DNA of 64,000 bases from Raillietiella orientalis (GCA_036172245.1 JAYWIR010000014.1:1922001-1986000); one strand, 5' to 3'. Positions 17,652 to 41,310 are shown, counted from the first letter of the stretch. Notes: generated by a model from the letters alone, not told the origin. Program-made: numbers and translations.

Positions 17652-19240
17652 AAAATTGGTACTGTTGCAATGTAGTTTTATTGAAACTGACTGATTTTTT
17701 TAAGACGTGTGTATTCTGTTTTAGATAAGTTGAATTTTATTATCGAGTATGCCATCAGTTAGCATAGATAAAAACAGTTGCATATTGCAGATGTGTTCTT
17801 TTTATAGTTTTGAAGTAGTATATGGAAAATGAAGTATATGGAATGTATATGGAAAATATAAAGAGATACTAAAACTGAGATAAGTGTTAGGTGCTGTCAA
17901 ACTATACTCACATTCTGTTTTTATTTCCTTGAGCACATATGTTTGTGTGTGCTTGTATTATTTTGAGCAATGTAAGTTAGGAAAAATTCCAAGTTCCTTA
18001 TTTCTGGTTTATTGTATGTTTCTTTTCAATGTTGCATGTTTTTCGATATTTCTGAGTCTTAATTTTTCAAAGTGTTCGTATCTCCAATCTCCATCCTTGT
18101 GTGTGGATAAACCAAGTTTCTGAAGGAATGAGTTCCCTTGAGTTTGTAATTCACAGTGTGTGCATGCCAGGTAGTTATGTTTCATATGTGAATTTATGTG
18201 ATATACAAGTGGACTTTCCTAAAACCTCACTCCTTAATAAGATGTTAAAGGTCCCAGTGGAATAGAACTATGTTTTTGACGTGTAGGTATAAGAAAGCAG
18301 TATAAATATCAGGCAGCATGATTTGAAAATGCAGACCTTGTCATCATCAAAAAAGACTAAAGTGTTTCAGTCTCCATTTGTGAAAGGATTCACTTCTGTA
18401 ATAAAGCATTACAAGTTTTTGCATGTTATAAGATTTTTTGTTCCCATACCTTATATAGGAAGTTTACTGAAATGTACATGTACATGTTACATGTTATCCT
18501 CATTAAGTATGATCTGTACTCTAAGCACCAATATGAGGTTCAGATATAGAAACATTGCTGTGGTACCAGTATTCATGAGATGTGTAGTGTCTTTTCCTAA
18601 AGCTTGGTGAAAGATGTCTTTTTCTGTTGTTTCCGAAATAGCATTGTTAATGTTTTAGCAGCAAAGAGTGGAATAAAACTAATGTGTTTAATTCCAAATA
18701 CATTGTAATATACTTATTTAAATGCAGAGAGGATTCATATTTTCAAAAAATCTTATGTAAACTACGAAGTATAAGCTTTCCAATAATAGTGGGACACTTA
18801 TATTATAAGTACAGCACCATACCAAGTTTAAAACTGGTATGCAGCATGCTTATCAGTTTTTCTGAAATACAACCGTAGTATGAAAAAATAACATACATAC
18901 CTTTATCTTGTTTCCTATCTTTAAGATTGCCCTGTTAAAGGTAATTAAGTGTGATAGAAATTACCAACAACACGTTAGTGATCTCAGAAAAAGTTAAAAA
19001 AAAAAAATCCCAGCATTTCAAAACATGTTCGGAAAAAGAAAAAGTAAACGAAGTATCAGTAAACGTTAACTAGACCGAGAAGTGAAAACTTGACATTGAA
19101 CTACACGACAAATGGGTGTTTTGGGTATGAAGCACGCACCTTAAGCTTCAAACTTGGAGCATTCGCAACTGAGATAAATGTGGAAGCGGGGAAATTTTGA
19201 ATCCAAATACATTTAATGTTGTTCAATTGAGACATTTTAC

Positions 19241-19288
19241 ATACTTACCTGGCTTCGAGGTCTTAATTGTGTTCACGACGACGGTTAA
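19241..19288 (+). ncRNA. U1 snRNA 5' fragment (retrocopied head of Tx1 copy A)
   Basis: Starts ATACTTACCTGGC (U1 5' end). Then stem TTAATTGT (19263-70) / ACGGTTAA (19281-88) closing the 10-nt loop GTTCACGACG, close to the U1-70K loop GATCACGAAG. No stem-loop II or Sm site. Confidence 0.85.
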
Positions 19289-19339
19289 TTAGTTAATTGT
19301 GATCGTGTGTGCCCGGAGGGGGAAAGTGTCTAGAAGAAA

Positions 19340-21253
19340 GTGAGTGTGGACAAGAGAGTGCTGCCTAGGATCAGCTCCTACAACTACAGAAGAAGCGCCG
19401 AGGAGATCACGGCGGAAGACCTGCAAACTTCCTCAGCGGCAGTACCAGCCGCCAGGATGCAGGCAACAGGAAGAGGAACGAGGAGGCCGACGTCCCCCAT
19501 AGAAGAAATGGAGGTACAGTACGGCAGTAGTGAGGCGGCGGCGAGGCCGAGGATCGCGCCCGCGGCGGCAGTTGTTGCGCCGGCGGCGGCGATGCCAAGG
19601 GTCGCGCCCGCGGCGGCGACGATGGAGGTCGCGCCCGCGGCGGCGACGGTGGAGGTCGTGCCCGCGGCACTGACACCGAGGATCGCGCCCGCGGCGGCAA
19701 TGGTCGCGCCTGCGGCGGCGATGCCGAGGTTCCCGCCCGCGGCGGCGGTGGCGGCGGCGGCAACGTCGAGGGTTGCGCCCGCGGCGGCGTCCCAGGCGGT
19801 ACCCGCGGGCGTCCACGCGGTGCAAGGAGCGCAAGATGCGACGCCATCTTGCTCGGCTGCGGCGACACAGCCATTCTCTTACGCGTCGGTGGCGGCGGGA
19901 CAGGTTAGTGTCCACCCACCAAGGAAATTTGGCAAGCCCCTAAGGGGGAAAGTAGAAAGGGTGGACCGGCCGGTTGTTCAGCTAGGCTGGGAGGTCAAGC
20001 CCATAATGTTTAGAACGGGGCTGATCAAATTCAGTAATATCAGGGAAGTATATCTGTCCCTAGATAAAACTGACATAGATTTCGATCGCATTCAGGCGAT
20101 CATTCCCAATAATTCCGGGTTCACGGTCTTCACAGACTGTGAGAACATCAAGGAGAGGTTGATCCAGAAAGGGATCAATATCCAAGGCAGGATGGTCTGT
20201 GGTGTCGGAGAGATGCCGTACACGACCGTCTACTTGAGCGGTAATTCGATCTACACACCACAACTAACGGTGTGGAAATACCTGGAACAGTTCGAGAACT
20301 TCTCTGGGAAAATCTTTTCTGGCGACATAATCGCCAAGATAAAATTGAATGAAGGTGCGCAGATTCCCGGGATAGCTGTCATAGACGAACCATCCCACTG
20401 CGTGAATGTGCGCTACCGGCAACAACCGGTATTTTGCACCGGATGCAAGCAGTTTGGCCACAGGGCCGGCGCTTGCCCAACATCGAGATGCTACCGCTGC
20501 GGCAAGATTGGACACCAAGTCCGAAACTGCCCGCAGCCGGAGGTTTGTTCCTTCTGCAAGAAGCACGGACACGCTAAATGGAGCTGTCCTGAATTCGCTA
20601 ATTGCAGAAGGATCCGTGGACTCTCTCCCGTGAGAGAGAGGAATTTGAGGGAGGCAGAACAGCCTCAAAAGTTGGCAGGAAGGACGAAGAAGACTAAGGA
20701 AGTCGTCCCGGTATCGGCGGACGGCTTCATAGAAGTGGGAAAGAAGGGGAAGAGGAGGATGCTCGTCAAGGAGCAGGAAGCCTCTCTTACCCCAGAAGTA
20801 GCGGCGGAAGGCGAAAAAATGGAGACAGTCCAGGAAGACGAGAAAGTAGTTGAAGAAGCCACTCCGGTGTCGCGGGAGGCCCTGCAGTCCACCGAGGAGT
20901 TGATAAAACTCTCAGAAGAAGTGATGGAGGTGCAAAGCGGACCCCAGCAGGTGCAAATCCTGCAGAAGATCTGCGATGCACAGGAGACTGTGAACCAGGT
21001 GGTGGAGGTAGCCGAGCGAGAGAAGGTGGAGGAACAGCTTCTCGAAGTAAAGGCGAACTTCTGTGCGAAGGTGGCGATAGAGGCGCTACCCAGAAAGGTC
21101 ATCGCGCGAGCAGAACACTCTACGGAGGAGGCCGAATTTACCGACCTCACCGGGACGGAGAGTGACGCTGCAAGCGATAAACCCGCTCCTTCTTCAGTGT
21201 CTGGAAGAGCACGCTCTCCCAGACAGAAGAAGCTCAGGAAGGCCAAAAAGTAG
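19340..21253 (+). CDS. ORF1 (gag-like) of copy A
   Basis: 637-codon open frame: Ala-rich 27-bp repeats (~19545-19790), CTGCKQFGHRAGAC, CYRCGKIGHQVRNC, CSFCKKHGHAKWSC, acidic tail. First ATG is at 19457. Confidence 0.9.
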   Translation: MSVDKRVLPRISSYNYRRSAEEITAEDLQTSSAAVPAARMQATGRGTRRPTSPIEEMEVQYGSSEAAARPRIAPAAAVVAPAAAMPRVAPAAATMEVAPAAATVEVVPAALTPRIAPAAAMVAPAAAMPRFPPAAAVAAAATSRVAPAAASQAVPAGVHAVQGAQDATPSCSAAATQPFSYASVAAGQVSVHPPRKFGKPLRGKVERVDRPVVQLGWEVKPIMFRTGLIKFSNIREVYLSLDKTDIDFDRIQAIIPNNSGFTVFTDCENIKERLIQKGINIQGRMVCGVGEMPYTTVYLSGNSIYTPQLTVWKYLEQFENFSGKIFSGDIIAKIKLNEGAQIPGIAVIDEPSHCVNVRYRQQPVFCTGCKQFGHRAGACPTSRCYRCGKIGHQVRNCPQPEVCSFCKKHGHAKWSCPEFANCRRIRGLSPVRERNLREAEQPQKLAGRTKKTKEVVPVSADGFIEVGKKGKRRMLVKEQEASLTPEVAAEGEKMETVQEDEKVVEEATPVSREALQSTEELIKLSEEVMEVQSGPQQVQILQKICDAQETVNQVVEVAEREKVEEQLLEVKANFCAKVAIEALPRKVIARAEHSTEEAEFTDLTGTESDAASDKPAPSSVSGRARSPRQKKLRKAKK

Positions 21254-21265
21254 GTCTTCCCCTTT

Positions 21266-24200
21266 ATGGCCTCATTCCTATCGACCGCCAGGAGGCTGAA
21301 CATCGCCTCCTGGAACGTAAACGGTTTAATCGACCAGACGAAAAGAAAGAGAATTGTGCGGACCATCGCACAACAGGACATCGTCTGCCTGCAGGAGACC
21401 CACAAGTTGGGACTCGAGATCAGTCAACGGATGGAACGACGTTTCAATGGGCAGATGTTCGCCAGCGAGGGAAAACGGAACACGCAGGGTGTGGCGGTCC
21501 TCATCAAGAACCACCTGGCCCCCACTATTCTGGAAGTGTTTTGTCCCTTGGCTGGACGCATCATCGGAGTGCGACTGTCCTGGTCCGCTACTGTTCACCT
21601 CATTTTGGTGAGCGTGTACGGACCGCACAGGCTAAAACATCGTTGCGCGGAGTCGCCGCACGCAGCACTTCGGGAAAAGGTCGCGCCCAAGGACGTCGTG
21701 ATCGTCGCTGGCGATCTAAACATCCTGGACGTCATCACACATTCCCAGGGCGCCAGAGGAAGGTCAGCGTATCGGCGGCTATCCGACGAGTTCGGATTGT
21801 TGTGGCGAACAGCAAGCCACAAGCCGATCGATCACGTCCTCCACAGCACGGAATTAGGGAATCGCATTCTGGGTTTTCGCGACATACCCACCACCCTGTC
21901 CGATCACCCGCTAGTGCGTTTTTCCCTAAGGACGGAGAATACTCGGCGAAAGCAAGGCACCAGGGCGGCGCTCATCAGCATGCCCGCCTGGTTCGAAACA
22001 CATCCTGGACATCAGGAGGTCCTGGAGGCGATTCTAAAGGCGACAACAATCAGAAGAGTCGCCGACTGGGACAGCCTGAAACACAGGATACACTTGTTTG
22101 CGAATATGCAGTTCGGCGATAGACGATTGAGGCAGGAAGCGTACCGGGAGCTGAACATCAAAGATCGCTCACTCTCCAAGTACTTCGAGGAGTACGAGAG
22201 ACGGTACGTCTTCCATAATGTAAAAGGGGAAGTCGGCGTGCTGGAGAAGAGGAATCTGGCAACAGACATCTTCTGCATCCAGTGCGCCGATCAAAGTCGG
22301 CACACGTCTGAAGATATCGTAGATGCCTTCGAAAGGCATTATACGGAACATTTTCGATGCGAACACCTGTGTTCGGCTACACAAAACACCTTCCTAGGCT
22401 ATCTGGAAAAGAAGCTTGACGACCTCCAGCGGAAGAGACTGGAGGAGGATATTACCGAAGAAGAAGTGAAGACTGCGTTCGGTCAATTACGCAAGGACGT
22501 GGCGGCAGGCCCTGACGATGTTCCCATCTCTCATTATCAGAGATACCTGCACGCCTACCTGCGTTTATTCCACCAGCTGACCCTCTGCATCCGACAAGAA
22601 GGACGACTGCCGGAGTCCTTCTACGAGAGCAGGACGAGATTGTTGCCGAAAGGAGGCGACCTATCCAGGATAGCCAATCTCAATCCTTAACTCGGATGCC
22701 AAGTGGCTGGCAAAGATCTGAGCCAACCGCTTAGGCAAGGTTATGTCGAGGCTGATATCTCCTGTTCAGACGTGTGCGGTACCCGGACGCCACATGCTGG
22801 ACAATGTCAAGTGCGCGCAGACTATCGTGGGACTTAGCCCATACGTCGGTGAGAACCTGGTGCTTGCGTTCACAGACATGGAGAAAGCCTTCGACACCGT
22901 CGATCACGGGATGCTGCTCAAGATTATGGAAAAGCTGGGACTTCCAGAATACTTCAGCATCTTCGTGCAAATGATCCTCCGGAATCAACGCTTCCGGATA
23001 AAAATCAACGGATTGGAAACGGCAGTCATTCGGATGGAGCGAGGAGTTCGGCAGGGCGACTCGCTAAGTCCGATGCTGTTCGTTATCTACATGGAGGCGC
23101 TCTCTTCTTTCGTCGAGAAGAACGGACGTCTAAAAGGAGTGGAAATAGATGACCAGAAGCTCACCCATCTAGCCTACGCGGACGATCTCCTCTTCTTCAT
23201 AAGAGGAAAGAAGGATCAAGAAACGTTCCTGGACGTGGTGAGCCTTATGAAAGACGGATTGGGCTTGAAGATCAACGCCCAGAAGAGCCAGATTTTGCCC
23301 GTCGGAATACTAGATCTCTCCACACTCACGGGGAATGGATTCCGTATGGTAGATACGGCCAAGTACCTGGGAGTCTACATAGGCGACGACTCCGCGTCGA
23401 AGCTGCTGTGGACAGAAATCCTGGGGAAAACGGCCAATGAAGCAGCAAAATACACTCGAATGGACTTTGGGATGAAGCAAAGGGCCAACCTCTGGAACGG
23501 AATACTCCTTCCAAAGGTACTCTTTGGAGCGGCCTTCGCTAGAATGAACAAAGAAACCACGAGAGAAGTAGAGAAGCTGCAACGCAAAACACTGTGGGGC
23601 CACTATCGCCCAAGAGTCCGATTAAAACCCCTGTGTCGTCCCAGGGAAGAAGGCGGTTCCGGGATGAAGTCGCCTGCACATTCCATGGAAATCATGGATA
23701 CGCGACACCTCCTGGATATCGCTACTCACTGGGATGACTGGCCGTATGCGGCGCACAGGGCCTACGCGTTGTTGTTGAACAACTCGAAAGGCCTGATGAC
23801 TGCGCTGCTAGGCCGAACAGGGGAATGGAGAACCATCGACCCCACCTGGACAAGAAAACAAAGGCTAGTGCGAAAGCACAAGATCAAGATTGTGCCGAGA
23901 AGCAGGGAACTCTGGCAGGAGGAATCCATCCTGGTGATCCCGTGGATGCTTCCGGTCCATCCGGACACGAGAAGCTGGATCTACCGGCGGCCCAGAGTTA
24001 CCCTGCAACGAATCCAGGAGTGGAGAAGAGTAGGTTACCTACATCACACTCGTATACTTCGGTATATAGAGATGATGCTAAGTAGGTTCACCCATAAGAC
24101 CCGCGAGGTGTGGATCAACCACAACGATCTCGCGTGGCCTAGGGTAACCAAAATAAACCTTAGAAGATTTATTCAAGAAGACGACCCTGACATCAGTGCC

Positions 24201-24773
24201 CTCCAAGAAGCAGCCGATCGCTACGGGAGTCATCGAATCAACCTGTTAGCGATTGGAACCACGCTCTGGAGGAGTGACCTACCGCCGGACACGCAGGAGC
24301 ACCTCCTGATGTTTTATCATGGAGGAATCCAAAGCGGGTCCAGACTTCAGTACTTTACCGGAAGACCGGAAGATCGAGACTGCGTAGCATGTGGCGACAC
24401 CGACACGAGACTTCACGTCTTGACGTGTCCCACATTGCTACACGACTGGCTGATCCTGAAAAGAATCATAGGACCCAACAACGAGTCCGTAATGGAAATC
24501 ATCACTTAGATGTTCCAGGGAGATGGTAATGTTCCATGTTACAATCCCATGGTGAGGACGACCATTGCTGTCTTCATCACCGCCATACTTGCGCGGTGGT
24601 GGAAGATGAGGAAAGCCAGAAGAGCCGCACCTCCGATGGAGATCCTTCAAGGACTCATCAAGAAGGAGATAGGCATCAGGAATTGTGGAAGAATCCATGC
24701 CTGGACGTACCGATTCATCCTGAAGAGGATTGAAGACGACGCCCGGGACCAAACATCCGGAAACCCACCCTGA
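21266..24773 (+). pseudogene. ORF2 (APE endonuclease, reverse transcriptase, zinc finger) of copy A, disrupted
   Basis: SWNVNG, LQETH, GDLN, IDHV, SDH; DMEKAFD, GVRQGDSLSP, YADD, KYLG; CVACGDTDTRLHVLTC. Frameshifting deletion near 22680, TGA near 22719 and TAG at 24507-24509. Confidence 0.93.
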
Positions 24774-24904
24774 AAGCAGAACTTGTGAAACCCCAAAGAC
24801 TTCAAAGCGGTAATAAAGTGTCAATAGTATGAATGAGATTGTAGTATGAATGAGTTTAAAAATGAAAAATAAATTTACCCCACCCTTGTGGGACTTGAGG
24901 AAAA

Positions 24905-26212
24905 TCGCCCAAGCTTCCGGCTGAAACAACTGTGTCGTCCCAGGGAAGAAGGCGGCTCAGGGATGAAGTCGCTTGCACATTCCATGGAAATCATGGATAC
25001 GCGACACATCCTGGATATCGCTACTCACTGGGATGACTGGCCTTATGCGGCGCACAGGGCCTACGCTTTGTTGTTGAACAACTCGAAAGGCCTGATGACT
25101 GCGCTGCTAGGCCGAACAGGGGAATGGAGAACCATCGAGCCCACCTGGACTAGAAAACAAAGGCTAATGCGAAAGCACAAGATAAAAATCGTGCCTAAAA
25201 GTAGGGAACTCTGGCAGTAGGAGTCCATCCTGGTGATCCCATGGATGCTTCCGGTCCTCCAAGACACGAAAAGCTGGATCTACCAGCGGTCCAGAGTTAC
25301 CCTACAACGCATCCAGGAGTTCAGAAGAGGAGTATACCCACATCACACTCGTATACTTCGGTAGATAGAGATGATGGTGGGTAGGTTCACCCATATGACC
25401 CGCGAAGTGTGAATCAACCACGATGACCTCGCGTGGTTCAGGGTAACCAAGATGAACCTTCGAAGAATGATTAAGGATGAGGACCAAGACACCAGTGCCC
25501 TCCAAGAAGCCGCCGATCGCTACGGGAGTAACCGTTTTAACCTGTTGGCGATTGGCACGACACTCTGGAGGAGTGACCTCCCGCCGGACACTCTGGGCGA
25601 CCTCCTGATGTTCTATCATGGAGGAATCCAGACCGGGTCCAGGCTCAAGCATTTCACAGGAAGACGGGAAGATGAAGACTGCACGGCATGTGGAGACATG
25701 GATACGAGACTACACATCTCGCCGTGTCGCACTTTGCTACGCGACTGGCTGATCCTGAAAAGGATCATAGGACAAAACAACAAGTCTGTGAGGGAAATCC
25801 TCGCCGGGATGTTTCAGGGAGATGGTAATGTTCCCTGTTACAATCCCATGGTGAGGATGACCATTGCCCTCTTCATCACCGCCATACTTATGCGGTGGTG
25901 GAATATGAGGAAAGCCAGGAGAACCAGAACCCCCATGGAGATACTACAAGGACTCATCCTCAGGGAGATTGGTATCAGGAACTGTGGACGACTCCAAGCC
26001 TGGACGTACAGATTCATCCTGAAGAGGATTGAGGACGACGCCCGGGACCAAACGTGTGGAAACCCACCCTGAATGCAGAACTTTGAGTATCTTAACGGAC
26101 CTTCAAGTGAAGTGAAAGTGATAATATATTGTTTGAATGAAATTGTAGTATGAATGTTTAAAAAAAAAATTTGAAAAATAAATTCACCCCACCCCTTGTG
26201 GGACCTGGGGAA
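24905..26212 (+). mobile_element. 5'-truncated copy B of the same family, fused directly behind copy A
   Basis: Homologous to 23625-24904 with several stops; same terminal hairpin; followed by right TSD AATTGAGGCATTTTACATA (26213-26231). Confidence 0.93.
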
Positions 26213-26699
26213 AATTGAGGCATTTTACATAAAACACGCGGCTTTTGGGTAAGTATATTTGCATTGGTAATGAAAAATCAATGTAACTTTGAGTGGGAAG
26301 ACTACGTATTGTGAAACGGTTGTGGACGTGTGAGATGAGTGTTCAAAATGGTATGCTTACTCTAATGACATGGCATGCGTGCAGTCGTCCATTCGTCTAT
26401 CATAGTGTCCGCGTTTTGAATCCAAGAGTAACGCATTTGTTAGGAGAGGAGGCATTCTTCCGCACTCAAGTCTCCGTTGTCGGTTGCTCAGGTGTTACCA
26501 TGGATCATTTTTGAAAAGTTTTCCCTCTGATAATGCAACCCGTTTAACTGCACCAGATGTTTGATTTCATTCGATCTGCGGGATCATGTCAAAGGAATGA
26601 GGATTTTGTAGTCGAACCCAAGAAGTGACACGCTAACATTTTGATTCTTCTATTCGTGAGAAAACGGAACCCAAAGCATCGAATCCATCACACTTTGAA

Positions 26700-26900
26700 A
26701 TAGATATGTACATGAAGTTATACATATATATGTTCACAAATTTATGCATGGAGATCTATATACACAAACGTGAATACATAAATACATATATGAACACGTA
26801 TATAAATCTGTGTATATATCTATATGTATATGTATGCATATACATATAGATATGGATACACTTGTATATGTATTTGTAAGTACTTATGTGAATTTATTCC
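26700..26900. repeat. Degenerate TA/TACA/TATG low-complexity tract
   Basis: Visible alternating-purine runs such as tatatgtatatgtatgcatatacatataga. Confidence 0.7.
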
Positions 26901-29900
26901 TATATAAAAGAAGTATGTATTTCATGAATACATGAATATAGAATTTCGTAAAATAAGAAATAATTCATGTGACGATTCAAAATCGTTCAAAAGATTGGAA
27001 AAGGAAACAAATGAAAAAAACAGAAACAAAATAGGAAATGCGCAACATAGAAACATGAAGAAAGAATGGAAGACGGAAGACCTCTCTTCTTTCTTTGTAT
27101 TTTTGCAGTTGCTAACTTTGATAAGAAAACAGGGATGGATTGTACAGAAGTGCATAGTGGTAGTCCACAAGAGCTGATGGACTTCCACGATGGTTCACTG
27201 TAGTTTGAAGCCTGGCCTGGGGACTAGTACGAAATGCTATTATCCCGAAAACCGCATTTCTCTTGGAGAAAAAAAACGGGCTATCTAAGTGGGATAGAAA
27301 GTCGAATGGATGGGTGCTCTGGTGTTTCATGGAGATCGTTCTTTGCTGGTTATTGCATCGAAGGTTTTTCTGCTTTTTTGGAGGGGTGCTCAGGTATCCA
27401 CAGTTGAATCCCTCAAACACAATTTCTGCTATGCTTGTGCACTCTTTCTCACGCAAAAGTTCCTTCCTTAAAGCATCTTGAATTCGAAATAAAACCAATT
27501 GGAAGTTAGATGTGTTTGAGAAATTCTAGGATTTTTCCAAGAGCAGGAAATAAGCCAACTTCCAGCTTGAAACAGGGAATCCTTCCATTGCCATTGCCGA
27601 GCAATCACCAGGCTGCGAAATGGACAGCATGTATCTTCAACATTCGTAGAACATACCCACTGTACGAATGCAAATGCGGTGAGCGCTTCGGAGATGATAG
27701 AAGAACTGAGCGAAAAATGCTTATCAGTTTTTCTGAAATGCAACCGTATTCTTATATGACTAAACCTTAATACGACCAGAGATCTCGCATGCCAAATTGT
27801 TCAGGAGTTTATAACTTTTGTTCCTAAGTAAATAGCACCATGCTTACGTTCAAGTAACGCTCTTTGCCAAAGAATGAACAGTTCAAAAAGTCGAAGACGT
27901 TCTGAACCAAGGACTCTTGGTGATATGGAAGTTTCTGAAGTATGAGGAAACATATCAAGTGGAGAGTTGTTGGCTAGGTATGCTACTTTTCGAGAAGTCA
28001 GACTTCTGATATTCTTCCCCGAACCGGACATTGGCTAGCACATCTTACCATGTGGGTAATGGATGGCGCTGTCAAAACTCTACCCAGTGTTCTATCAATT
28101 GTATACTTTTCACGCTCCTGTAGTGCGCGAGAATTTTAGAATGCATCCCCTTGTTTTTTGCTTTGATGACTGGGAGAAGTTTTACAAATTCTCGTTTGAA
28201 GATGTAGTGGACTCTACAGAAGAAGATTGATTTCAAATGAGTCCTTTAACCCTAGTACGGATTTGGAATTAGATGCTATACCAAAGCAACGAAGTGTGGA
28301 TTCAGGGTAGGTATTCGAAAAAGAGTTCGAAAGTTGTTAATTTAGGGTGTTACCAAGAAAGTTTGTGTTTTCCATTCAATCCAATGCATTTGGAGGAAAA
28401 ATTCAGATGCCGCGCTATAGAACGAAGACAAAATCTTCCGTTTCAAAATGCATCATTTGAGTGAGCACCCATTTCTTTCAGCTCATGAAATTCTAGGAGC
28501 CTTCCCGCAAGTGACAACAGCATCACGTAGAAAATGAATGCGAGAGCATTCTCCGATTAGAGCCATATCCTAAAAGATAACAAAAGCAGCTATTCATCGG
28601 AAACAAAAATTCCAAAAAAAAAACGGCAAATGATCGTGAAAGTCGGCCAGCCCTTATGGATCAGCGACGTTGACTATTATCTATCTCTGTTTTGTTTTTC
28701 AAAGTTGATAGTTACAAGGGTACAAATAAAAGCCGGAGCTCTCTTCCTATCTTCCGCTTTCCTTTCCTAATCATTGGAGTTTCTACGAGGGATGCAACAA
28801 CAGGTTTCACTCATTGGGTCGTGCTGTAGACCGTATTTCGGAGACGTGTTCTTCTTCGTCGAAGAGCTGTTTCTCGTCATGAGCTTGTCTCAGGTTCTGG
28901 GTATCATCCGGTACTCGCCCAATCCGACGTGTCCATTAGATCTCGCGTGTAGGGAATGAAAAAGTCAACTCTGAGCTGCCTCATTTTAGCCGCTTACATC
29001 CGCGGAACACCCTTTTCTCTGAGGTTTGCTTCATTGAGAGAGGTCCGATTTTGCAAAGGTTCAGTGATGGTGGCCAGCACCTTTGCATGGACTCCTTTCT
29101 TGGACTGCTGGTTGGTGTTGACCCAAAGGTGTTTCCAAGACCTTGGTATTTGGATGCATTCCTGGGGTCTTTCCCATTTTCAAAGGTGCAAGCTGCGGCA
29201 CCATCTTGTTGCCCTTCTGTAATATCAGATCGGAACTCAGAATTGAATCCACACCAGGGATGCACTAATTGTCGAACATCAATTGCCATCTTGCTGTTCC
29301 TACCGCTACTAATTTGATCATATCTACAATTGCATCGTGCCCACCCGTGCAAAGATAAAAGTGCCTTTAGCAGTGATTTGTTATCAGAGGCAACCCGTCT
29401 TCGCACAGAACCAAGAACGACGTGAGCAATCACCTCGTTCTTGTGTTCTGGCAGCTCGTCTTATGGATAGCAGTTTTATCCTTGCACTGTGGATGCCTTC
29501 TTCGAGATGATCTGCCAGGAAGCGGCATGCATAGACTTCGGAGTCGTCAGTAGTTGCTATTGTCTAGACGTGGGGTGGACTACCGGTTTGGTTTCTATCG
29601 GGGATCGCCAGGAGCAGCTACTTCAAGTGCCTGGGCGTCCCACGGGGCGAATTCCCCGTAGAGCAGAGCAAGGATCTGGTCCAACTAAAGGAGGCCCTTA
29701 CTGGCGTCCGGAAAAGTTGAGGATCCGATTCAAAGACATAGGAGCTCTCCTGGTGGCAGGATACGGTGTAGACTTGGACGTAGTTCACGGGCACAACTTC
29801 GGATCTCAGCTATCCGAGACTCATCCTGAAGAATTCACCGTCTGGGAACTCATACTCCATCCAGTGAAAAGGACGGAGTAACTGCAACACGCCTAGTGGC

Positions 29901-32614
29901 AGCTCTGTCTTCCCTAGTGGAGAAGAATGGTAGCCTCCCACCAATGACGTGGGGGCTCACCAGCGAAACTGCGGCAACTGTCAAAGCAAACTTCTTTTCC
30001 ATTATGTACTGGATACTCCCATCGTTGAATTCAAGAGGTTGAGCATAGCTGATGCTGGTTCAGCTATAACAGCTAGCCTTTTCAACTTATCTCTTATTTA
30101 ATATGCTACTTTCTAAGAGGAGCATAAGAAGAATGAAGGTTTAGTCAATGGGGGCAGTCTAGAGTATTCTGGGCTTGTAGTGCACTTTATAGTGCTTTGG
30201 TGCGTGCGGGAATCAGAAACTATTAAGGGCATGAGTAAATTTGAAGCAAACAAAATCAGCTGCCTTGGACACTGACTCCAAATGTAGCTTGCTCGGTACA
30301 AATCGTCTTGGGGATGTCGCCATCCTGAAAGATGGAGATTCACTTCATAAATAGTTCAGAAGTAAGACTTATATGAATTGGTGGTAATGAGAATTATTAG
30401 GGGAGTTTGCTTAATAAATGATAATCCGCGAGGAACTTACTTTTTTAGTGTTTGTATATTGTTGATTTGATTATTTAGAAGTGATTAATTTTCTTAATCG
30501 GTGATCAGAATCCAGTTACAGGTTATGAGGTGGCTAATGGAAATGATTCGTGGAACATTTGGAACATCCACCGTCCGAGTTGTTTTTTGTCGCATTTTGT
30601 TTTCTTTGAATAGATATTGCTTTCGAAATGCTGCTCTTATCTAGATCATGGATGAATTGTTAGCTATTATTGAAGATTTGAATAATTTCGTTCACACTTT
30701 AGCTAGTATTGAATATTTCAATGTGCAATCCATCAACACTCATCTTCAAGGAAAGAAAAAAATGCCGATCGGAGCAATTTGTTTTGCACGTAATGGTATT
30801 TTCATGGTTCATACAATGCGTTCTACAGTGCCTTATTTTTATTGCTCTATATTTTCCTGAAATTTGATAGGAGACATGCAAAGAATACGTCGACATTCAT
30901 TTTTTGACTTCCAGACTCAATGTTCCCCAAACTTGTTCCGATTTTGAATTCCTATTTGCTCTTAAGCAAAGCAGTATGCTGATTCTTTGCGCTGTCACTC
31001 TTTGCGTTGACATACAGTATCGTTGCAAATCAATGAAAATGACATTTTGTATCAATTTTTCCCGCGCTTAGAGAACACTGAAAACTGGTTCCGTAATAGT
31101 GTGAATGAAAAGTAGCAAGCATTAAGTCATAAGAAATCACATTTCGTGGTACCCATGAAGTCCTATCCAAAGTATTCAATTAACAGTAATGAATTTGTGT
31201 ACTTTACGATTTTCCCCAGGTCCCACAAGGGGTAGGGTGAATTTATTTATCATTCATACTACATAACATTCATTCAAACAACTTTCTGCTTTTGCACTTT
31301 TCACTTTCACTTAGGGAGTCACTGTAGGCTTGTCTGCACTGGGTTTGCACTTGGGAGGACTACGTATGGTTTGGGTTCGTGCCTGGACAATACTTCCTAT
31401 CCTGCGAAGGATGTATTTGTATGTCCAGGCTTGCACTTTACCGCAGTTCCTGATACCAATCTCCTTTTGGATGAGTCCTCTGAGGATCTCCATGGGAGAT
31501 ATGGCTGAGCTGGCGTTCTTCATCTTCCACAGGATAGCTGTCGATTCTCTCGCGGACGGGGGAGTCCTTGCATCGTACGCCAGTTAGCGTAATCTGGGCA
31601 GCTCCACCTCGCGTGTCCCCGTGCCTTACAAAAGGAACACACCTCCGGTTGTTGACAACTGCGTACTTGGTGTCCCTGCTTGCCGCAGCGGAAGCACCGA
31701 GAATGCGGACGAACACTGACCCTGTGGCCAAAATGTTTGCACCCTGTGCAGAATACCGGTTCTTGTTGTTATCGTACATGAACCTCCTGGGAGTCCCCAT
31801 CAATATGGACCAATTCCGGAATTTTCACCTCCTTTTGTAACTTCATTTTGGCGATTATATCGCCCGAAAAGATCTTACCGGAGTTCTGGGACTCCACATC
31901 CATGACTTCTCCATATTTGGACAAAAAGGTCCAAATGGCTTGCTTATTTGTGGTGGAGACACCACTCAAAAACACTGTCATGTAACATATCACCAATGCC
32001 ACGAACCAGTCTCCCTCGAAGATTGGTTCCCTTTTGTATAAGGGTTTCGGTCAATAATTCACTATCGGTGTATATAGTGAATCCTGTGGTACTTGGTATG
32101 ATGGCCTGTACGCGGTCGAAATCGACGTTCTCCTTGTACAAGGCCAAGTATACTTCCTTTATGTTGTTTATCCGGATTAATCTGGTCTTGAACGTGATGG
32201 GCTTCAAGTCCGGACCGAGCCGTAGGATCGGCTCATCCACGTTATCAATCTTCCCACTCTCGGGCTTCCCAAATTTGCGTTGCGGCTGGGCGTTGGAATT
32301 GCCCGAAACCAACGCCACATACGAGAATGGCCGCGTTTTCGCAGTCGTACAAGATGGCGCCGCTTCCTGCGAGCTCTCCGCCACGTGGGAGCTCGTATGC
32401 ATCGCCAGTGGCGCCGCTGCGGGCGTAACCAGTGACGCCGACGAACCTCGCACTCGCCGGGTGCTCCGCTTGCATCTTGGCAGTGCGCTGGTGAACCCTG
32501 CCGCCGTCGCTGTGGGACGCAAGTCCTCCACTGTGGTGCCGCTGCAGGTGGTGTAAGTCCTCTGCTGCACTGTCACTGGTGGATGGGCTCAGTCACCGTC
32601 TTTGCACTGATCGC

Positions 32615-32713
32615 TTGCCCGTTCGGGGCACAAAAATTGCCGCGGCAGCGGTAATGTATGTCTTGGCGGGGTATTCGTAAAGTTTTCAACTAGCAATAAT
32701 CGCAACTCCCTTT
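32615..32713 (-). ncRNA. U4 snRNA, 3' portion (head of copy C)
   Basis: Minus strand GCGATTATTGCTAGTTGAAAACTTTACGAATACCCCGCC...GGCAATTTTTG (Sm site), then terminal hairpin TGCCC-CGAAC-GGGCA; matches conserved metazoan U4 blocks. Confidence 0.9.
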
Positions 32714-35700
32714 TGCCCAAGTCCCACAAGGAGTGGGGTACATTTATTTTCTTTTAAATCTCATTCATTCTACAATCACATTCATACAACATACCAACAC
32801 TTTATCACTTTGAAGTCCTTAGGGGTATCACAAGTTCTGCTTTCAGGGTGGGTTTCCAGATGTTTGGTCCAGGTGTCGTCTTCAATCCTCTTCAGGATGA
32901 ATCGGTACGTCCAGGCATGGAGTCGTCCACAGTTCCTGATGCCGATTTCCTTCTTGATGAGTCCTTGCAGGATCTCCATCGGGGGTGCGGCTCTTCTGGC
33001 TTTCCTCATCTTCCACCACCGCGCAAGTATGGCGGTGATGAAGACAGCAATGGTCATCCTCACCATGGGATTGTAACAGGGAACATTACCATCTCCCTGG
33101 AACAACCCAGTGATGATTTCCATTACGGACTCGTTGTTGGGTCCTATGATTCTTTCCAGGATCAGCCAGTCGTGTAGCAATGTGGGAGACGTCAAGACGT
33201 GAAGTCTCGTATCGATGTCGCCACATGCCGTGCAGTCTTCATCTTCCCGTCTTCGCGTGAAATGCTTGAGCCTGGACCCTTTCTGAATTCCTCCATGATA
33301 AAACACCAGGAGGTTGTCCTGGGTGTCCGGCGGAAGGTCACTCCTCCAGAGCGTCGTGCCGATCGCTAACAGGTGATCCTGTCACTCCCGTAGCTATCGG
33401 CGGCTTCTTGGAGGGCACTGGTGTCTTGGTACTGGTCCTTGATAATCTTCCGGAGGTTCATCTTGGTTACCCTAGACCACGCGAAGTCGTTGTGGTTTAT
33501 CCACACTTCGCGGGTCTTATGGGTGAACCTACTTAGCATCATCTCTATATACCGAAGTATACGAGTGTGATGTAGGTAACCTACTCTTCTCCACTCCTGG
33601 ATTCGTTGCAGGGTAACTCTGGGCCGCCGGTAGATCCAGCTTCTCGTGTCCGGATGGACCGGAAGCATCCACGGGATCACCAGGATGGATTCCTCCTGCC
33701 AGAGTTCCCTGCTTCTCGGCACAATCTTGATCTTGTGCTTTCGCACTAGCCTTTGTTTTCTTGTCCAGGTGGGGTCGATGGTTCTCCATTCCCCTGTTCG
33801 GCCTAGCAGCGCAGTCATCAGGCCTTTCGAGTTGTTCAACAACAACGCGTAGGCCCTGTGCGCCGCATACGGCCAGTCATCCCAGTGAGTAGCGATATCC
33901 AGGAGGTGTCGCGAATCCATGATTTCCATGGAATGTGCAAGCGACTTCATCCCAGAACCTCCCTCTTCCCTGGGGCGACACAGGGGTTTTAACCTTACTC
34001 TTGGGCGATAATGCCCCCACATGTCTTCCTCTGCAGCTTTTCTACTTCCCTGGTGTTTTCTTTGTTCATCCTGGCGAAGGCCGCTCCGAAGAGCACCTTT
34101 GGAAGGAGTACTCCATTCCAGAGGTTGGCCTTTCGCTTCATGCCACAGTCCAATCGGGTGTACTTCGCTGCTTCTTTGGCCGTTTTCCCCAGGATTTCTG
34201 TCCACAGTAGCTTCGTCGCAGATTCGTCCCCGATGTAGACTCCCTGGTACTTGGCCGCGTCCACCGTTCGGGATCCTCTCTCCGTGAGAGCGGAGAGATC
34301 CAGGATTCCGACGGGCAAAAGCTGGCTCTTCTGGGCGTTGATCTTCAGGCCCAGTCCTTCTTCCATTAGCGCTTCCTTCACCACATTTAGGAACGCTTGC
34401 TGATCCCTCTCTCCCCTAATGAAGAAGAGGAGATCGTCTGCGTAAGCGAGGTGGGTGAGCTTCTGGCCGTCGATTTCCATGCCCCGTAGTCACCCGCTCT
34501 TCTCGATGAAAGAAGACAGCGCCTCCATGTAGATAACGAACAGCATGGGACTTAGCGATTTGCCCTGCCGAACTCCTCGTTCCATCCGAATGGCTGCTAT
34601 TTCTACTCTGTTGATCTTGATCCGGAAACGTTGATTCCGGTGGATCATTTCTACGAAGTTGCTGAAGTATTCTGGAAGTCCCAGCTTTTCCAGAATCTTC
34701 AGGAGCATCCCGTGATCGATGGTGTCGAAGGCTTTCTCCATGTCGGTGAACGCCAGCACTAGGTTCTCACCGATGAATCGGCTGAGTCCCACAGTGGCCT
34801 GAGCACACTTGACATTGTCCGACATGTGGCGTCCGGGTACCGCACACGTCTGAACAGGAGATATCAGCCTCGACATAACCTTGCCTAAGCGGTTGGCTCA
34901 GATCTTTGCCAGCCACTTGGCATCCGAGTTAAGGATTGAGATTGGCTATCCTGGATAGGTCGCCTCCTTTCGGCAACAATCTCGTCCTGCTCTCGTAGAA
35001 GGACTCCGGCAGTCGTCCTTCTTGTCGGATGCAGAGGGTCAGCTGGTGGAATAAACGCAGGTAGGCGTGCAGGTATCTCTGATAATGAGAGATGGGAACA
35101 TCGTCAGGGCCTGCCGCCACGTCCTTGCGTAATTGACCGAACGCAGTCTTCACCTCTTCTTCGGTAATATCCTCCTCCAGACTCTTACGCTGGAGCTCGC
35201 CAATCTTACTTTTCAGATGACTCGAGAAGGTATTCTGTATCGCCTGACACAGGTGGCATTGCAGATTTTCTGCAGGAGTTGCTCCTGCTGAGGTCCGCTC
35301 TGCGCCTCCTTCACTTCTTCAGACAGTTTCTCCGCCACTTCGGTGGTCTGCAGGGTCTCCTGCGACGCCGGGGTGTGTTCTGGCAACTTCGCCACCTCGC
35401 CTTCCTCCGCAACCTCCATCCTCTCGCCTTCCTCCGCAACCTCCATCCTCTCGCCTTCCTCCGCAACCTCCATCCTCTCGCCTTCCTCTGCCGCTACTTC
35501 CGGGGTAAGTGGAGTTTCCTGCTGCTTGACTAGCATGTTCCTCATCCCCTTCTCTCCTACCTCTACGAAACCGTCCGCCGAAACCGGAGTGGCCTCCTTC
35601 GCCTTCCTCTGCTTTATTACCTTCTGAGGTTTCACCACCTCGGTGAACGCCTTTTCCCGCACGGGGGACTGGCCACGCATAGTCCGGTAGTTGGCAAACT

Positions 35701-36296
35701 CCGGACAGCACCACTTCGCATGCCCTGGCTGCTTGCAAAACGAGCACATTTCGGGCATGTCGCAACTGCGCACCTGGTGTCCCTGCTTCCCACAGCGGAA
35801 GCAGCGAAACCTGGGGCAGGCGCCCAAACGATGTCCAAAATTTTTGCAACCTGTGCAGAACACAGGTTGTTGTCTATAGTTGATGGAGACCTCCTGTGAG
35901 TCACCGTCGATGTGCACGATCCCGGGATCTGTGCACCCTCTGCCATCTTTAGTTTGGCGATGACCTCGCCAGAAAAGATCTTCCCAGCTATGTTCTGGAA
36001 TGTCAGCTCCAGAACCTCCCCAAATTTGGACAAGTCCCACACAGTGAGTTTCGTAGTGGTGAGTCCCACGCCCCTCAGCAGGACGGTCGTGTACGGCATT
36101 TCGCCGATACCCGGGACCATCCTTCCCTGTATATTGATGCCCGTTTCAATTAGGGCCTCTCGCAGGGGATCCGAATAGATGGTGAACCCCGACGTACTAT
36201 GGGATTATCGCCTGAATTCTGTCAAAGTCTACATTTGTCTTGTAGAGAGACTAGTAGACTTCTCTAATGTTGTTGAACCGGATTAAGCCGGTTCAA
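32714..36296 (-). mobile_element. Copy D: 5'-truncated Tx1-like element lacking the endonuclease, inserted in the U4 sequence
   Basis: Perfect 20-bp TSD CAATAATCGCAACTCCCTTT at 32694-32713 and 36297-36316. Partial ORF1 with three CCHC knuckles and an EVAEEGERM 27-bp tandem repeat (~35395-35490), joined near 35250 to the RT part of ORF2. Confidence 0.95.
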
Positions 36297-36338
36297 CAAT
36301 AATCGCAACTCCCTTTCGTTCAGAGGCCGCGATACTGC
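36297..36338 (-). ncRNA. U4 snRNA, 5' stem-loop portion (first ~14 nt missing)
   Basis: Minus strand GCAGTATCGCGGCCTCTGAACGAAAGGGAGTTGCGATTATTG corresponds to U4 GCAGTATCGTAGCCAATGAGG...GAGGCGCGATTATTG; contiguous with 32615-32693 once copy D and one TSD are removed. Confidence 0.85.
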
Positions 36339-36821
36339 TCGTGTGCTTCACGATTCCGGCTTTTAGAAAGAAAGAAAGCACCCGCGCGATACGCTGCTAT
36401 TGTGACAGTGCTCAGGAAGGGATACCAAGCTCACACAGAGGAGGAATTAACTGTTTTGAAATATCAAAGATTACACTTGAAACTTAGTTTTCTTGATCCA
36501 TGGAACAAGAACTAAGCTTGACCTATTTGGAGAGTGCTTTAGACGCATTAGCATCTGTAGGTATTCAAACTGCATCTTTGCTATACATTCACTTTGCTGT
36601 ACCTGAATTCAGTTCTTAAATTCTAAATTTCTGTAATGCTTCAATTACCCACTAATTTTATCAACCAAAGAAATTTTTCTATGAGTTTTCAAAAATTTAA
36701 CAATACAAAATTTGGGATCAAGAAGCTCATGCATTTTTTCTCTCAATGATCTGAAATTAGCGTTTGCATGAACAGTTGATACGAAAATAAATTTTAGGAT
36801 CTATGATTTTTCTTGTGAAAT

Positions 36822-37952
36822 TCACAATCCAATTGAAAATGAGCGCCCACATGCATTATGCGCAAGTTCATGATGTACTTCAGCTACACACTATTCATAC
36901 CAGATACTCCGTTTGCTAGCTCTTCGCAGATGGACTGTGCTTTCACTTACCCTGTCCATAAGAATTCGATCCTAAAATTAGAAATAATATTAGCTATGAA
37001 ATGCAAAATTCTTACCTTGAAGGGAGGCAAAAATTGAAACCAGCTGAACATATCAGGCGTTTGTGTCTCAGGTACTGTACTCAGCATAACGTCTTTATAA
37101 AGATTAGCTTCAAAGTAACCTTCTATGCCATGTAACATTGCTTGCTGGCAGGTACGGAAACTTAGAAAAGCTTATCGACTATAATTCTTATTAGGGTATG
37201 AGAAACATAAATAAGGAAAACAAACTGATGAGCTCTAACCATATTTGGGATGATAAAATGTAAAATAATGGTTACGCGTGTGCCAGTTCTAGCGCCAATT
37301 CCGAAGATGTACAACATAGGGAATTTCAAAGCATGTGTATGCAGGTCTAAAAGGTTCTCCAGATAATGCGACTTCATCATGCAAGCGTGGTGAATGCAAA
37401 TTTGCTAGATTGGATGTGTAGCTGCAAGGGATAATTATTCCTCCTTCTGTGAAAATCCTTGATTTCATATTACGGACATGCATTTCTTTAAATTTTTCCT
37501 ATAAAAGCATTTTAAATTCTTTACTGACAGTTGCTGTTTCTGTCCGTCGGGACATAAATCTTCCATAGCTCGTGAAAGAGCTTTCTGATACAAGTAATAT
37601 TTTGTTGTATCTTTTTCAAAAATCTCATAGTTCTGTGATTCAAGATCATCAATGAAAGGTTGTAGAGGTATCTGCTGATTGTCCTTATAGCATTGCACAA
37701 ATTGTTATAAAGCATTATCTGGAGGACGGTTTTAGCAGAAAATCAAAGTGAATCTGTAACTCACTTGCCAAAGATACAAATACTGCCGGTATGAGCGCAC
37801 AGACTCATGCCTTGGGGCACCACAAAGAACTACTTGAAGATACTGCCGAAATAAACGAATTGGAAAATCCTGATGTGCACGTGACAAAACAGGGAAAGCT
37901 TTACGATTAGTAATGAATGTACTAATTGATAAGGCACAACGTATAGGTTTCT
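36822..37952 (-). pseudogene. PRMT5: Partial, intron-containing PRMT5 copy
   Basis: FITNRKAFPVLSRAHQ, QIPLQPFIDDLESQNYEIFEKD, IPCSYTS, FEIPYVV, TPDMFSWF and GRSFSIGL* are present. The N-terminus and the GAGRG/SELLG catalytic segment were not found, and frame breaks are present. Confidence 0.8.
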
Positions 37953-39223: not shown

Positions 39224-39461
39224 AATGTAATTGATTTTGCCCCTTGTTTGTTTTTGACTAATGTTATCTTTCAGACCCAATGCACGTATGCTGAATAACA
39301 ACGAAAACGGCAGTTAATAAATTTTTCCTTTAGAATATTTTCTGTGTGTTTATTCAATTTTTTTCTTTCTTGATTTTTTAGAGTTACATCCATCATCCCT
39401 AATTTTTCTGCTAAAAATTGGCAAATTTAATCTTTGTAAATTAAGATATATAGGCCACTTA

Positions 39462-41310
39462 ATGGCAAAGTCAAAGAAAATAGGTACTCACAATGGTGCA
39501 TTTCATTGTGATGATGTGCTGGCATGTGTACTTTTAAAGTTTCTTCCCGATTATGCCAGTGCAGAAATAGTCAGGTGTGTAATGAAAAATACAGTTATTC
39601 CAGAATTATTGTGTGATAATGTCTTATGTAGATCAAGAGATCCTGCAGTATTAGAATTGTGTGACGTAGTAGCAGATGTTGGTGGAACATACGACTTGGG
39701 TAAACTTAGATTTGATCACCATCAAAGGTAGGAATTATGTGACAATGCAACAATTTATAAAAATCATTTACAATTTTACATTTCCCTCCTCCCCTCACCG
39801 TTTGTGTGGAGAATTCATTTTGATGTAATCATAATCACCAGTTCAAAAAATTGTTCTATATATAAAACATTTGAATTCAATTATTGTATTCAAAGTTTAG
39901 ATGATTTTTACTTTCAATTTGCCAAGGCTTCTCTCCCAAATTCTTGTCAAAAAAGCTACAGTTAGCATTTTGATTTTGATTTGGAATCACTGGTACACTT
40001 TTATATGGCAAGCTTCTTTGTCAAACAAAACCATCTATCAAGGCTTGGTTCAGCATGCCATGAGCTAACAAATTTGCACAGATGAGAATATAGATAGATA
40101 GGCTTTACAAAGGAAAGTTATTTTTCAGACTTGAAGTTTATTATCTGGCGATATTTAAATCTTTCACTGTAAAGAATTATCCCTGAATCGCAATCTGTTG
40201 TGTATTATTTCAGTTTCATTTGTATTAACGAACAATCTACTGCTAAATGCTAAATTATAATGCTAAATTATTTATCACATGTTCTAGAACATTTCATGAA
40301 ACTATGCATTCCCTTGATGCAAAAAAGCCATGGACTACTAAACTAAGTAGTGCTGGATTAGTTTACTTTCATTTTGGCGCAAAAATCTTGTCTACTCTTT
40401 TAAATCTGGAGCCAGTACATCAGTTCATTGAGAAAATATATGGCAAGCTATATGAAGACTTTATTGAAGCAGTGGATGCTATAGATAATGGAATAAGCAT
40501 TTGTGAAGGAAAACCAAAGTATATATTAAATATCTAGTTTGCACTAAATTGACTTTTGTATAGATATCGTATCACCACAGATCTGAGTTCAAGAGTTTCA
40601 CATTTGCTTCCATCTTGGAATGATCCTGAAAAAGACTTCAAGACTGCATTTGTTAAAGCATCAGAATTAGTCAAACAAGAATTTTTGGAAAGAATTGATT
40701 ATTATAAAAATTCATGGATTCCAGCATTTGAACTTGTGAAAGCTGCTGTAGAAAAAAGATTTGAGGTAGCTGATTCTTATTTGCTTGATTGTCGCATGTT
40801 TACACTAAGAGAAAATTTCACTTTCATTGCTGCAGTGATTTAGATTGCTTTTTATTCTTATATGAAAACAATATTCAGGTTGATAAAAAAGGAGAAATCA
40901 TCATCTTGGATGCTGGAGGTATTCCATGGAAGGAACACTTACAAGATCTAGAATCTGAAGAAGGAATTGAAGGATGTATCAAGTATGTTTTATATAAGGA
41001 TGTGGGAAAGGAATGGCGTGTACATGCAGTACCTGTGTCACCCAGTAGTTTTCAGCTGAGGTTAAGTATCTGGCTTATGTTGACAAAATATAGAATGTTA
41101 CAACTTTGCAGATTACCGCTACCTGAGAAATGGAGAGGCTTGACAGGCAAGCAGCTGGAGGAGGCCACTGGTATATCCGAAAGTACTTTTGTTCATGCAA
41201 GTGGATTTATTGGATCATGTAAAACTAAAGAAGCTGCTTTAATTATGGCACAAAAAGCACTAAATACATCTTTTTCCCTTTCTTATAGACTAGTCTATTT
41301 CTATTTCTAG
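39462..41310 (+). CDS. MYG1: MYG1 exonuclease, multi-exon
   Basis: [54 protein letters not shown]. Confidence 0.95.

Follow-up and report, generated by a model that had tools for sequence, protein, structure and literature searches.

Copies of an L1/Tx1-superfamily retrotransposon with U1 and U4 small nuclear RNA heads in a 64-kb stretch of Raillietiella orientalis DNA

We analyzed a 64-kb stretch of DNA from Raillietiella orientalis (GCA_036172245.1 JAYWIR010000014.1:1922001-1986000), hereafter the window, over whose whole length all positions are counted. It holds five copies of one long interspersed nuclear element (LINE) family, namely the copies A, A', B and C and a mini copy of 39 nt. 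Only A and C retain the start of the first open reading frame (ORF1), and both of them (2/2) carry a piece of a spliceosomal small nuclear RNA (snRNA) at their head: U1 in copy A and U4 in copy C. Each head lies inside the target-site duplication (TSD) of its insertion, with 17/18 matching positions in A and 13/15 in C; head and element therefore entered together. All larger copies are chimeric in make-up; A', B and the mini copy are 5'-truncated and thus uninformative on heads. As the explanation for the heads of A and C we put forward single-event composite retrotranspositions, in which the reverse transcriptase (RT) jumped from its own template onto an snRNA, a reading whose chances of being right or wrong appear to us about evenly balanced.

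The copies were detected by self-blastn, by tblastn with the three ORFs of copy A and from the 3'-tail core CCTTGTGGGA, which occurs five times. The tblastn comparison of these ORFs with the 64-kb window returned no further diverged copies beyond A, A', B and C. Copy A and the adjoining copy A' are organized as follows:

19226-19243, plus strand: left TSD of A and A' (ATTGAGACATTTTACATA), the last 3 nt of which overlap U1 nt 1-3
19241-24905, plus strand: copy A
19241-19288, plus strand: U1 head of copy A, from U1 nt 1 to about nt 46-48, with the 5' splice-site-pairing end and a hairpin like stem-loop I
19289-19333, plus strand: spacer of 45 nt between the U1 part and copy A's own 5' untranslated region (UTR)
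19334-21253, plus strand: ORF1 of copy A, an open frame of 639 amino acids with its first ATG at 19457, ending with TAG
21254-22690, plus strand: N-terminal part of copy A ORF2, an APE-type endonuclease (Pfam Exo_endo_phos, E 1.4e-16)
22722-24509, plus strand: RT part of copy A ORF2, in a different frame (Pfam RVT_1, E 1.3e-25)
24856-24905, plus strand: conserved 3' tail of copy A, ending in ...ACCCCACCCTTGTGGGACTTGAGGAAAA; it has a small hairpin and lacks a long poly(A)
24906-26213, plus strand: copy A', 5'-truncated, 85.4% identical to positions 23605-24905 of A
26214-26231, plus strand: right TSD of A and A' (ATTGAGGCATTTTACATA)

One TSD (ATTGAG[A/G]CATTTTACATA, 17/18 match between its sides) encloses A and A' jointly, U1 head included. 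The U1 head opens with an exact 13-nt U1 5' end, ATACTTACCTGGC, at 19241-19253, which overlaps the edge of the TSD by 3 nt. It is followed by an upper stem (AAUUGU/ACGGUU) and a 10-nt loop, GUUCACGACG, in which we read a resemblance to U1 stem-loop I; the loop agrees with the Rfam U1 consensus loop at 7/10 positions. When positions 19241-19296 were given to Rfam alone, U1 was the sole family reported (11.7 bits, E 0.16, model positions 1-55, truncated mode), and no U1 was reported by the gathering-threshold scan of the whole window or for 18500-37500 or 19200-19340. Because this score is far below the gathering score of 69.5 for U1, the assignment rests on the exact 13-mer and the hairpin. Could chance or separate events have placed snRNA retro-pseudogenes next to LINE copies? 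Each TSD encloses both the snRNA piece and the element, and the 13-nt U1 end, the sole match in the window at no more than one mismatch where 0.02 were expected by chance, sits exactly at the TSD edge. We consider the probability of such a coincidence practically negligible.

The 45-nt spacer behind the U1 part may represent another partial U1 piece; by alignment it contains a repeat of TTAATTGTG from the U1 part. Rfam reported no match for 19287-19332. Reading the spacer as an snRNA Sm site with a 3' hairpin was rejected, as its likeness to the U4 3' hairpin of copy C (15/19) was equalled by 100/300 shuffles.

Copy C and copy B lie further along the window on the opposite strand:

36341-36355, minus strand: left TSD of copy C (AATCGTGAAGCACAC)
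36297-36340, minus strand: 5' piece of the U4 head, 44 nt, starting at about U4 nt 15 and ending with the 17 nt of copy B's left TSD
32711-36296, minus strand: copy B, inserted later into the U4 head of copy C and 5'-truncated in ORF1 (about amino acid 228)
32694-32710, minus strand: right TSD of copy B (GGGAGTTGCGATTATTG), U4 sequence
32616-32693, minus strand: 3' piece of the U4 head, with the U6-pairing region, the Sm site AAUUUUUG and the 3' hairpin
31212-32615, minus strand: body of copy C, consisting of the 5' UTR, a degenerate ORF1 (ATG 32474) and then the last ~330 nt with the 3' tail
31197-31211, minus strand: right TSD of copy C (AATCGTAAAGTACAC)

The two sides of the copy C duplication (AATCGT[G/A]AAG[C/T]ACAC, 36355-36341 / 31211-31197) match at 13/15 positions, and the duplication of copy B (GGGAGTTGCGATTATTG, 36313-36297 / 32710-32694) is perfect (17/17). 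Exactly across these 17 bp the two U4 pieces continue into each other, which restores the conserved AUUAUUGCUAGUUGAAAACU, the Sm site and the 3' hairpin. In the joined stretch of 126 nt (the 122-nt head and 4 nt past the 3' hairpin), AUUAUUGCUAGUUGAAAACU occupies position 38-57, and hence the head lacks about 14 nt at the U4 5' end. At the other end, the complete U4 3' hairpin is joined straight to the 5' UTR of copy C. Rfam assigned 34.1 bits (E 1.5e-4) to the 3' piece, below the U4 gathering score of 46, and did not score the 44-nt 5' piece alone. The ORF1 part of copy C is equivalent to amino acids ~1-435 of copy A, and the copy as a whole is a non-autonomous derivative of ~1.5 kb with an internal deletion.

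A preliminary description of this DNA, made from its sequence, had reported sense-oriented snRNA pieces inside the TSDs of both copies with an ORF1 start, U1 from about nt 1 to 48 in copy A and U4 from about nt 15 to its 3' hairpin in copy C. These pieces are real, and their coordinates and ranges had been read correctly. The distance of 40-50 bp given there between the snRNA and ORF1 is accurate for the start of the open frame (19334 in A, 32588 in C); measured to the first ATGs (19457 and 32474) it is too short, as these lie about 140-170 nt past the snRNA parts. The Rfam comparison that it had suggested does name U4 and U1, both of them below the gathering scores and U1 in truncated mode only. 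For the systematic mechanism proposed there, the count in the window is 2/2 informative copies.

The copy inserted into the U4 head deserves a description of its own. A head hidden on copy B was considered and rejected: its first bases already align to ORF1 at about amino acid 228, and the copy is hence 5'-truncated. Compared with copy A, the ORF1 part of copy B is 64.5% identical in nucleotides and 49% in amino acids and its ORF2 part 90.3% in nucleotides, the two parts being joined at a short GATGC-like microhomology. Judged by these identities, copy B is a mosaic of two lineages. Over the 2.5 kb shared by A and B, tracts of 99-100% identity (windows starting at 22464-22664 and 23758-23958) alternate with tracts of 75-89%, a pattern that fits recombination among lineages. 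Both copies have a frameshift in the N-terminal part of the RT and an in-frame TGA (~22690-22720), which lie inside a 100% tract; these common RT defects are located at 22620-22790 on the plus strand and at 34830-35000 on the minus strand. Either an already defective mosaic master gave rise to them, or they were exchanged between the loci by gene conversion. At its start copy B has TTGAACCGG, which with its reverse complement CCGGTTCAA six bases on forms a 9-nt inverted repeat (36270-36296, minus strand); this 9-bp snap-back at the truncation point may be a trace of second-strand priming.

How could the heads have been acquired? Under template jumping, the RT would reach the 5' end of the LINE RNA during target-primed reverse transcription, jump from there onto a spliceosomal snRNA and copy it, and the entire complementary DNA would then be joined to the target. 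For copy C, this would mean copying of U4 that began at the 3' end and stopped near nt 15; for copy A, it would mean copying of U1, after the 45-nt spacer, from about nt 46 to nt 1. We infer that the snRNA-LINE joints arose by such jumps. The joint between A and A' bears the signature of an end-to-end template jump, as the complete 3' end of copy A (...GAGGAAAA) directly abuts an internal position of A' within one TSD. Had A and A' been inserted one after the other at one site, a duplication would lie between them; there is none, which speaks for a template jump. The junction of U4 through its complete 3' hairpin is likewise as expected for a jump onto the 3' end of an RNA. Neither head contains an snRNA promoter, because the promoters of U1 and U4 lie upstream of the transcribed region. 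The same location of these promoters is stated in Kojima 2015 (PMC4494074).

Of the two mechanisms considered in the preliminary description, RT template jumping is favoured by the window over read-through from snRNA genes. The latter would be a 5' transduction by source copies located within a U1 gene (near nt 46-48) and immediately downstream of a U4 gene, which would be transcribed from the snRNA promoters and take the upstream snRNA part with them on insertion elsewhere. The U1 head has U1 nt 1 as its first base, right at the TSD edge, and ends at an internal U1 position, which fits a transcript that starts at the U1 start and runs into an inserted element. The insertion of copy B into U4 sequence with a clean 17-bp TSD also speaks for this route, as do the targeting of U2 by the Tx1-clade element Keno and the co-transcription with the target known for R2 (PMC4494074). 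However, no source locus is visible in the window, and the TSD-defined insertions are not in snRNA genes, with the exception of B, whose U4 target is itself a 5'-truncated retro-copy. Read-through would also need two snRNA genes and two insertion positions for related subfamilies, and the U4 head, lacking its first ~14 nt, bears no start-site signature. Even then, the A/A' joint inside one TSD would still require a template jump or a tandem source. We therefore regard read-through as possible, but rather unlikely.

Another route to the same structure would be joining at the RNA level, with the snRNA ligated to the LINE RNA before reverse transcription and the chimeric RNA copied as one template. 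The U4 3' end joined directly to the 5' UTR of copy C agrees with this, whereas the U1 piece is not joined via its 3' end. The ligation route is described for U6, an RNA polymerase III transcript with a special 3' end; U4 and U1, unlike U6, are Sm-class RNAs of RNA polymerase II. For U6 and L1, ligation before reverse transcription has been described (bioRxiv 10.1101/2025.02.02.635956). The sequence of the window does not separate ligation from a template jump; we consider ligation very unlikely here.

A similarly low probability applies to inherited heads: each subfamily would have acquired its head a single time and passed it on with the element as a fixed and perhaps useful 5' module, as Tx1-2_Crp or SINEU do. 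Crocodilian Tx1 and SINEU elements do have U1 and U2 heads at the family level (PMC4494074), and the U1 loop of copy A is off the Rfam consensus at 3/10 positions despite the 17/18 TSD, which would fit a head older than the insertion. Yet post-insertion decay would also allow for two to three changes over 48 nt, and the window has one 5'-complete copy per subfamily. Moreover, this proposal concerns the inheritance of a head and not its origin, and is thus compatible with either template jumping or read-through.

Several points weigh against template jumping as the source of the heads. Only two copies are informative, and the window holds no second copy of either junction. The U1 call is weak by Rfam (11.7 bits, truncated mode only). 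Since U1 starts exactly at nt 1 and stops internally at about nt 46, a jump onto the 3' end of an RNA needs an extra assumption, namely that the jump was internal or that a U1 fragment served as the template. Neither alignment nor Rfam nor the shuffle comparison explains the 45-nt spacer. Tx1-clade relatives target snRNA genes, as Keno does with U2 (PMC4494074), and copy B lies inside the 122-nt U4 head, for which the random odds are ~0.2% per insertion in 64 kb; its position hints at some preference for U4 sequence. Finally, gene conversion between the nearby A and B loci could equally give the mosaic pattern of these two copies. Homology between the 5' UTRs of A and C, which would have marked the true 5' end of the element, was not supported, as the best local score was reached by 95/300 shuffles and the MAFFT alignment was weak. 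The more general proposal that the RT of this lineage routinely ends on snRNAs, so that most 5'-complete copies would have exchangeable heads (U1, U4, perhaps others), appears to us distinctly unlikely.

In addition, the 3' ends of the copies bear on how the element starts its reverse transcription and where it inserts. The tails of the five copies lie at 24856-24905, 26166-26213, 32711-32760, 31212-31260 and 5839-5880, and their last ~30 nt are near-invariant (AAATAAAT..ACCCCACCCCTTGTGGGA..GGGGAAAA), in contrast to the ORF1 regions with their ~65% identity. The tail has a predicted small hairpin of 8 pairs; in the alignment of the five tails, compensatory (double) changes were found in 0/8 of these pairs. 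From its conservation, the 3' tail is probably the recognition site of the RT. The smallest copy consists of nothing else:

5839-5877, minus strand: mini copy, the last 39 nt of the 3' tail only, found by blastn

This mini copy is flanked by a TSD of its own (ATTGA[C/A]AGTGCGATAC, 5893-5878 / 5838-5823, 15/16), from which it follows that reverse transcription begins precisely at the 3' end and that even very short copies are able to integrate. The four TSDs of the window (those of A with A', of B, of C and of the mini copy) lie in mutually unrelated sequence, with a loose AAtTGAG-like start that is an impression by eye only. Because these target sites are unrelated, the machinery does not insert only into snRNA genes. 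Outside the window, copy A ORF1 gave 102 pattern matches in metagenome contigs, 0 of which were confirmed, and the 3'-tail pattern had no match in either metagenome contigs or prokaryote genome contigs (0 in each).

The proteins of copy A place the family within a broad group of LINEs. Its RT is closest, among solved structures, to human L1 ORF2p (E 1.2e-23), and the best among the 77 matches listed from protein databases are 24-36% identical, mostly unnamed or plant L1-like proteins. The nearest Atlas clusters carry RVT_1 and zf-RVT. The ORF2, with an APE endonuclease and an L1-superfamily RT, has the domain combination of the Tx1 clade. Based on this combination, the likeness to L1 ORF2p and the identity of the best matches, the element belongs to the L1/Tx1 superfamily. 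Membership in the Tx1 clade itself is unproven from the sequence, and no named Tx1 reference was among the matches listed in the protein, Atlas and PDB searches. By Pfam, copy A ORF1 has one zf-CCHC knuckle (E 1.5e-5), copy B has a weak zf-CCHC, and no RRM was detected in ORF1. An ORF1 of the CCHC/RRM type is also carried by plant L1s. In non-mammalian animals, such a Type I ORF1 (RRM and/or CCHC knuckle) is consistent with Tx1 (PMC5203782). ORF1 and the endonuclease ORF of copy A share one frame, with a lone TAG between them at 21251-21253 (plus strand); ORF2 may be made via stop read-through or re-initiation, or the TAG may be a mutation.

The closest published counterparts are the Tx1-Mar families of crocodilians, where U1 heads occur in Tx1-2_Crp, Tx1-2B_Crp and Tx1-4_AMi and a U2 head in Tx1-11_Crp (Kojima 2015, PMC4494074). 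The SINEU families mobilised by Tx1-Mar gained U1 or U2 5' pieces many times, and 26 SINEU-2 copies have extra 3'-truncated U1 5' pieces that go back to multiple independent events and were attributed to template switch; partial duplications inside the heads are described as well (PMC4494074). For the crocodilian heads in general, the same source names template switch as the likely cause and transcription from flanking sequence as an alternative. The two systems are alike in the following: both comprise L1/Tx1-type LINEs and short derivatives with a sense U-snRNA 5' piece and no snRNA promoter; the U1 piece in both is the 5' ~50 nt, 3'-truncated; and the partial head duplications there have a parallel in the TTAATTGTG repeat in the head of copy A. 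In contrast to the crocodilian elements, the host here belongs to a distant non-vertebrate animal lineage, the window copies show no Mariner target preference, and one head is U4, which the passages considered of PMC4494074 do not report for Tx1 or SINEU; the term 'U4 snRNA' occurs 0 times in that paper. Our literature searches, whose coverage excluded most subscription journals and Repbase, returned no paper on a U4-headed LINE family.

Human L1 is reported to form chimeras with the U1-U6 snRNAs, above all U6/L1 (bioRxiv 10.1101/2025.02.02.635956; PMC4494074). Like the copies described here, they have a sense snRNA 5' of the LINE and one TSD around both, and template switch or RNA ligation is invoked for them. 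They differ in that their L1 is usually strongly 5'-truncated and dead and their U6 is full length, whereas the ORF1 ATG is retained in both A and C together with ~120-140 nt of upstream sequence, so that variable 5' truncation is not seen. Furthermore, U1 is 3'-truncated and U4 5'-truncated here, and a junction via the complete snRNA 3' end as in the human chimeras is found for U4 and not for U1, where the piece ends near nt 46 and the 45-nt spacer comes next.

Site-specific elements offer a further comparison, as Utopia LINEs are reported to target U2 genes (PMC4640811). As in Keno and Utopia, a non-LTR (long terminal repeat) element is here associated with snRNA sequence, and copy B lies in U4 sequence with a TSD. 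Unlike these elements, A and C are not in snRNA genes: on the 3' side they are followed by the TSD and then by unrelated DNA, and their snRNA pieces are on the inner side of the TSD, with the element. Copy B alone is flanked by U4 at either end, and this U4 sequence belongs to the truncated head of copy C. Tripartite chimeric retro-copies from double template jumps are reported from Magnaporthe (PMC2104539). There, too, several RNA templates are copied in one LINE insertion, as in the series A' to A to (spacer) to U1 within one TSD; that case differs in that the LINE is fungal and the partner RNAs are others. Since the phenomenon and both candidate mechanisms have already been published, the copies in the window are of a known type, with no new mechanism on present evidence. 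What is new here is the U4 head and the distant non-vertebrate animal host.

The remainder of the window contains host exons, identified by Pfam, and a ribosomal RNA (rRNA) fragment:

1640-3037: NAT10-like acetyltransferase
6540-7417, minus strand: internal piece of 28S rRNA, ~0.8 kb (Rfam LSU_rRNA_eukarya, 605.7 bits, model positions 665-1455), outside a ribosomal DNA context
39321-41307: MYG1
52664-54135: glycerate kinase (DUF4147 and MOFRL)
61703-63457, minus strand: alpha-kinase with Sel1 repeat

None of the 120 proteins listed exceeds 45% identity to the glycerate kinase exon; the named ones come from animals of many phyla, and this points to an animal-like lineage far from crocodilians. 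The long exons and their close spacing suggest a fairly compact animal-type genome. The 28S fragment is the sole Rfam find at gathering thresholds in the window and may be a retro-copied rRNA piece; by eye, its likeness to 28S rRNA ends near ...CCATGTACGGAAAA. It adjoins or overlaps an ORF on the other strand with a weak Bcl-2 match (7175-7831, E 5.6e-4). Matches to microRNA families on both strands of 26740-26905 (mir-297, mir-466 and others) reached 21-37 bits against gathering scores of 81-101 and were rejected as spurious, the region being AT-rich TA/TG low-complexity sequence.

As they stand, the findings comprise two well-documented chimeric insertions of known type, which are useful for annotation. 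If the pattern holds genome-wide, it would represent a second, independent animal lineage with snRNA-headed L1/Tx1-type elements and extend the observations of Kojima to U4 and to a host far from crocodilians. With its young copies and sharp TSDs, it would also offer a clean system for the 5' finishing of LINE reverse transcriptases and for the birth of snRNA-headed short retroposons. Should the RT of this lineage indeed jump routinely onto snRNAs, the headed RNAs might profit from proteins that bind the Sm site or the U1-70K loop, for example by nuclear retention or stability, and SINEU-like families outside the vertebrates would take their start from headed deletion derivatives like the 1.5-kb copy C.

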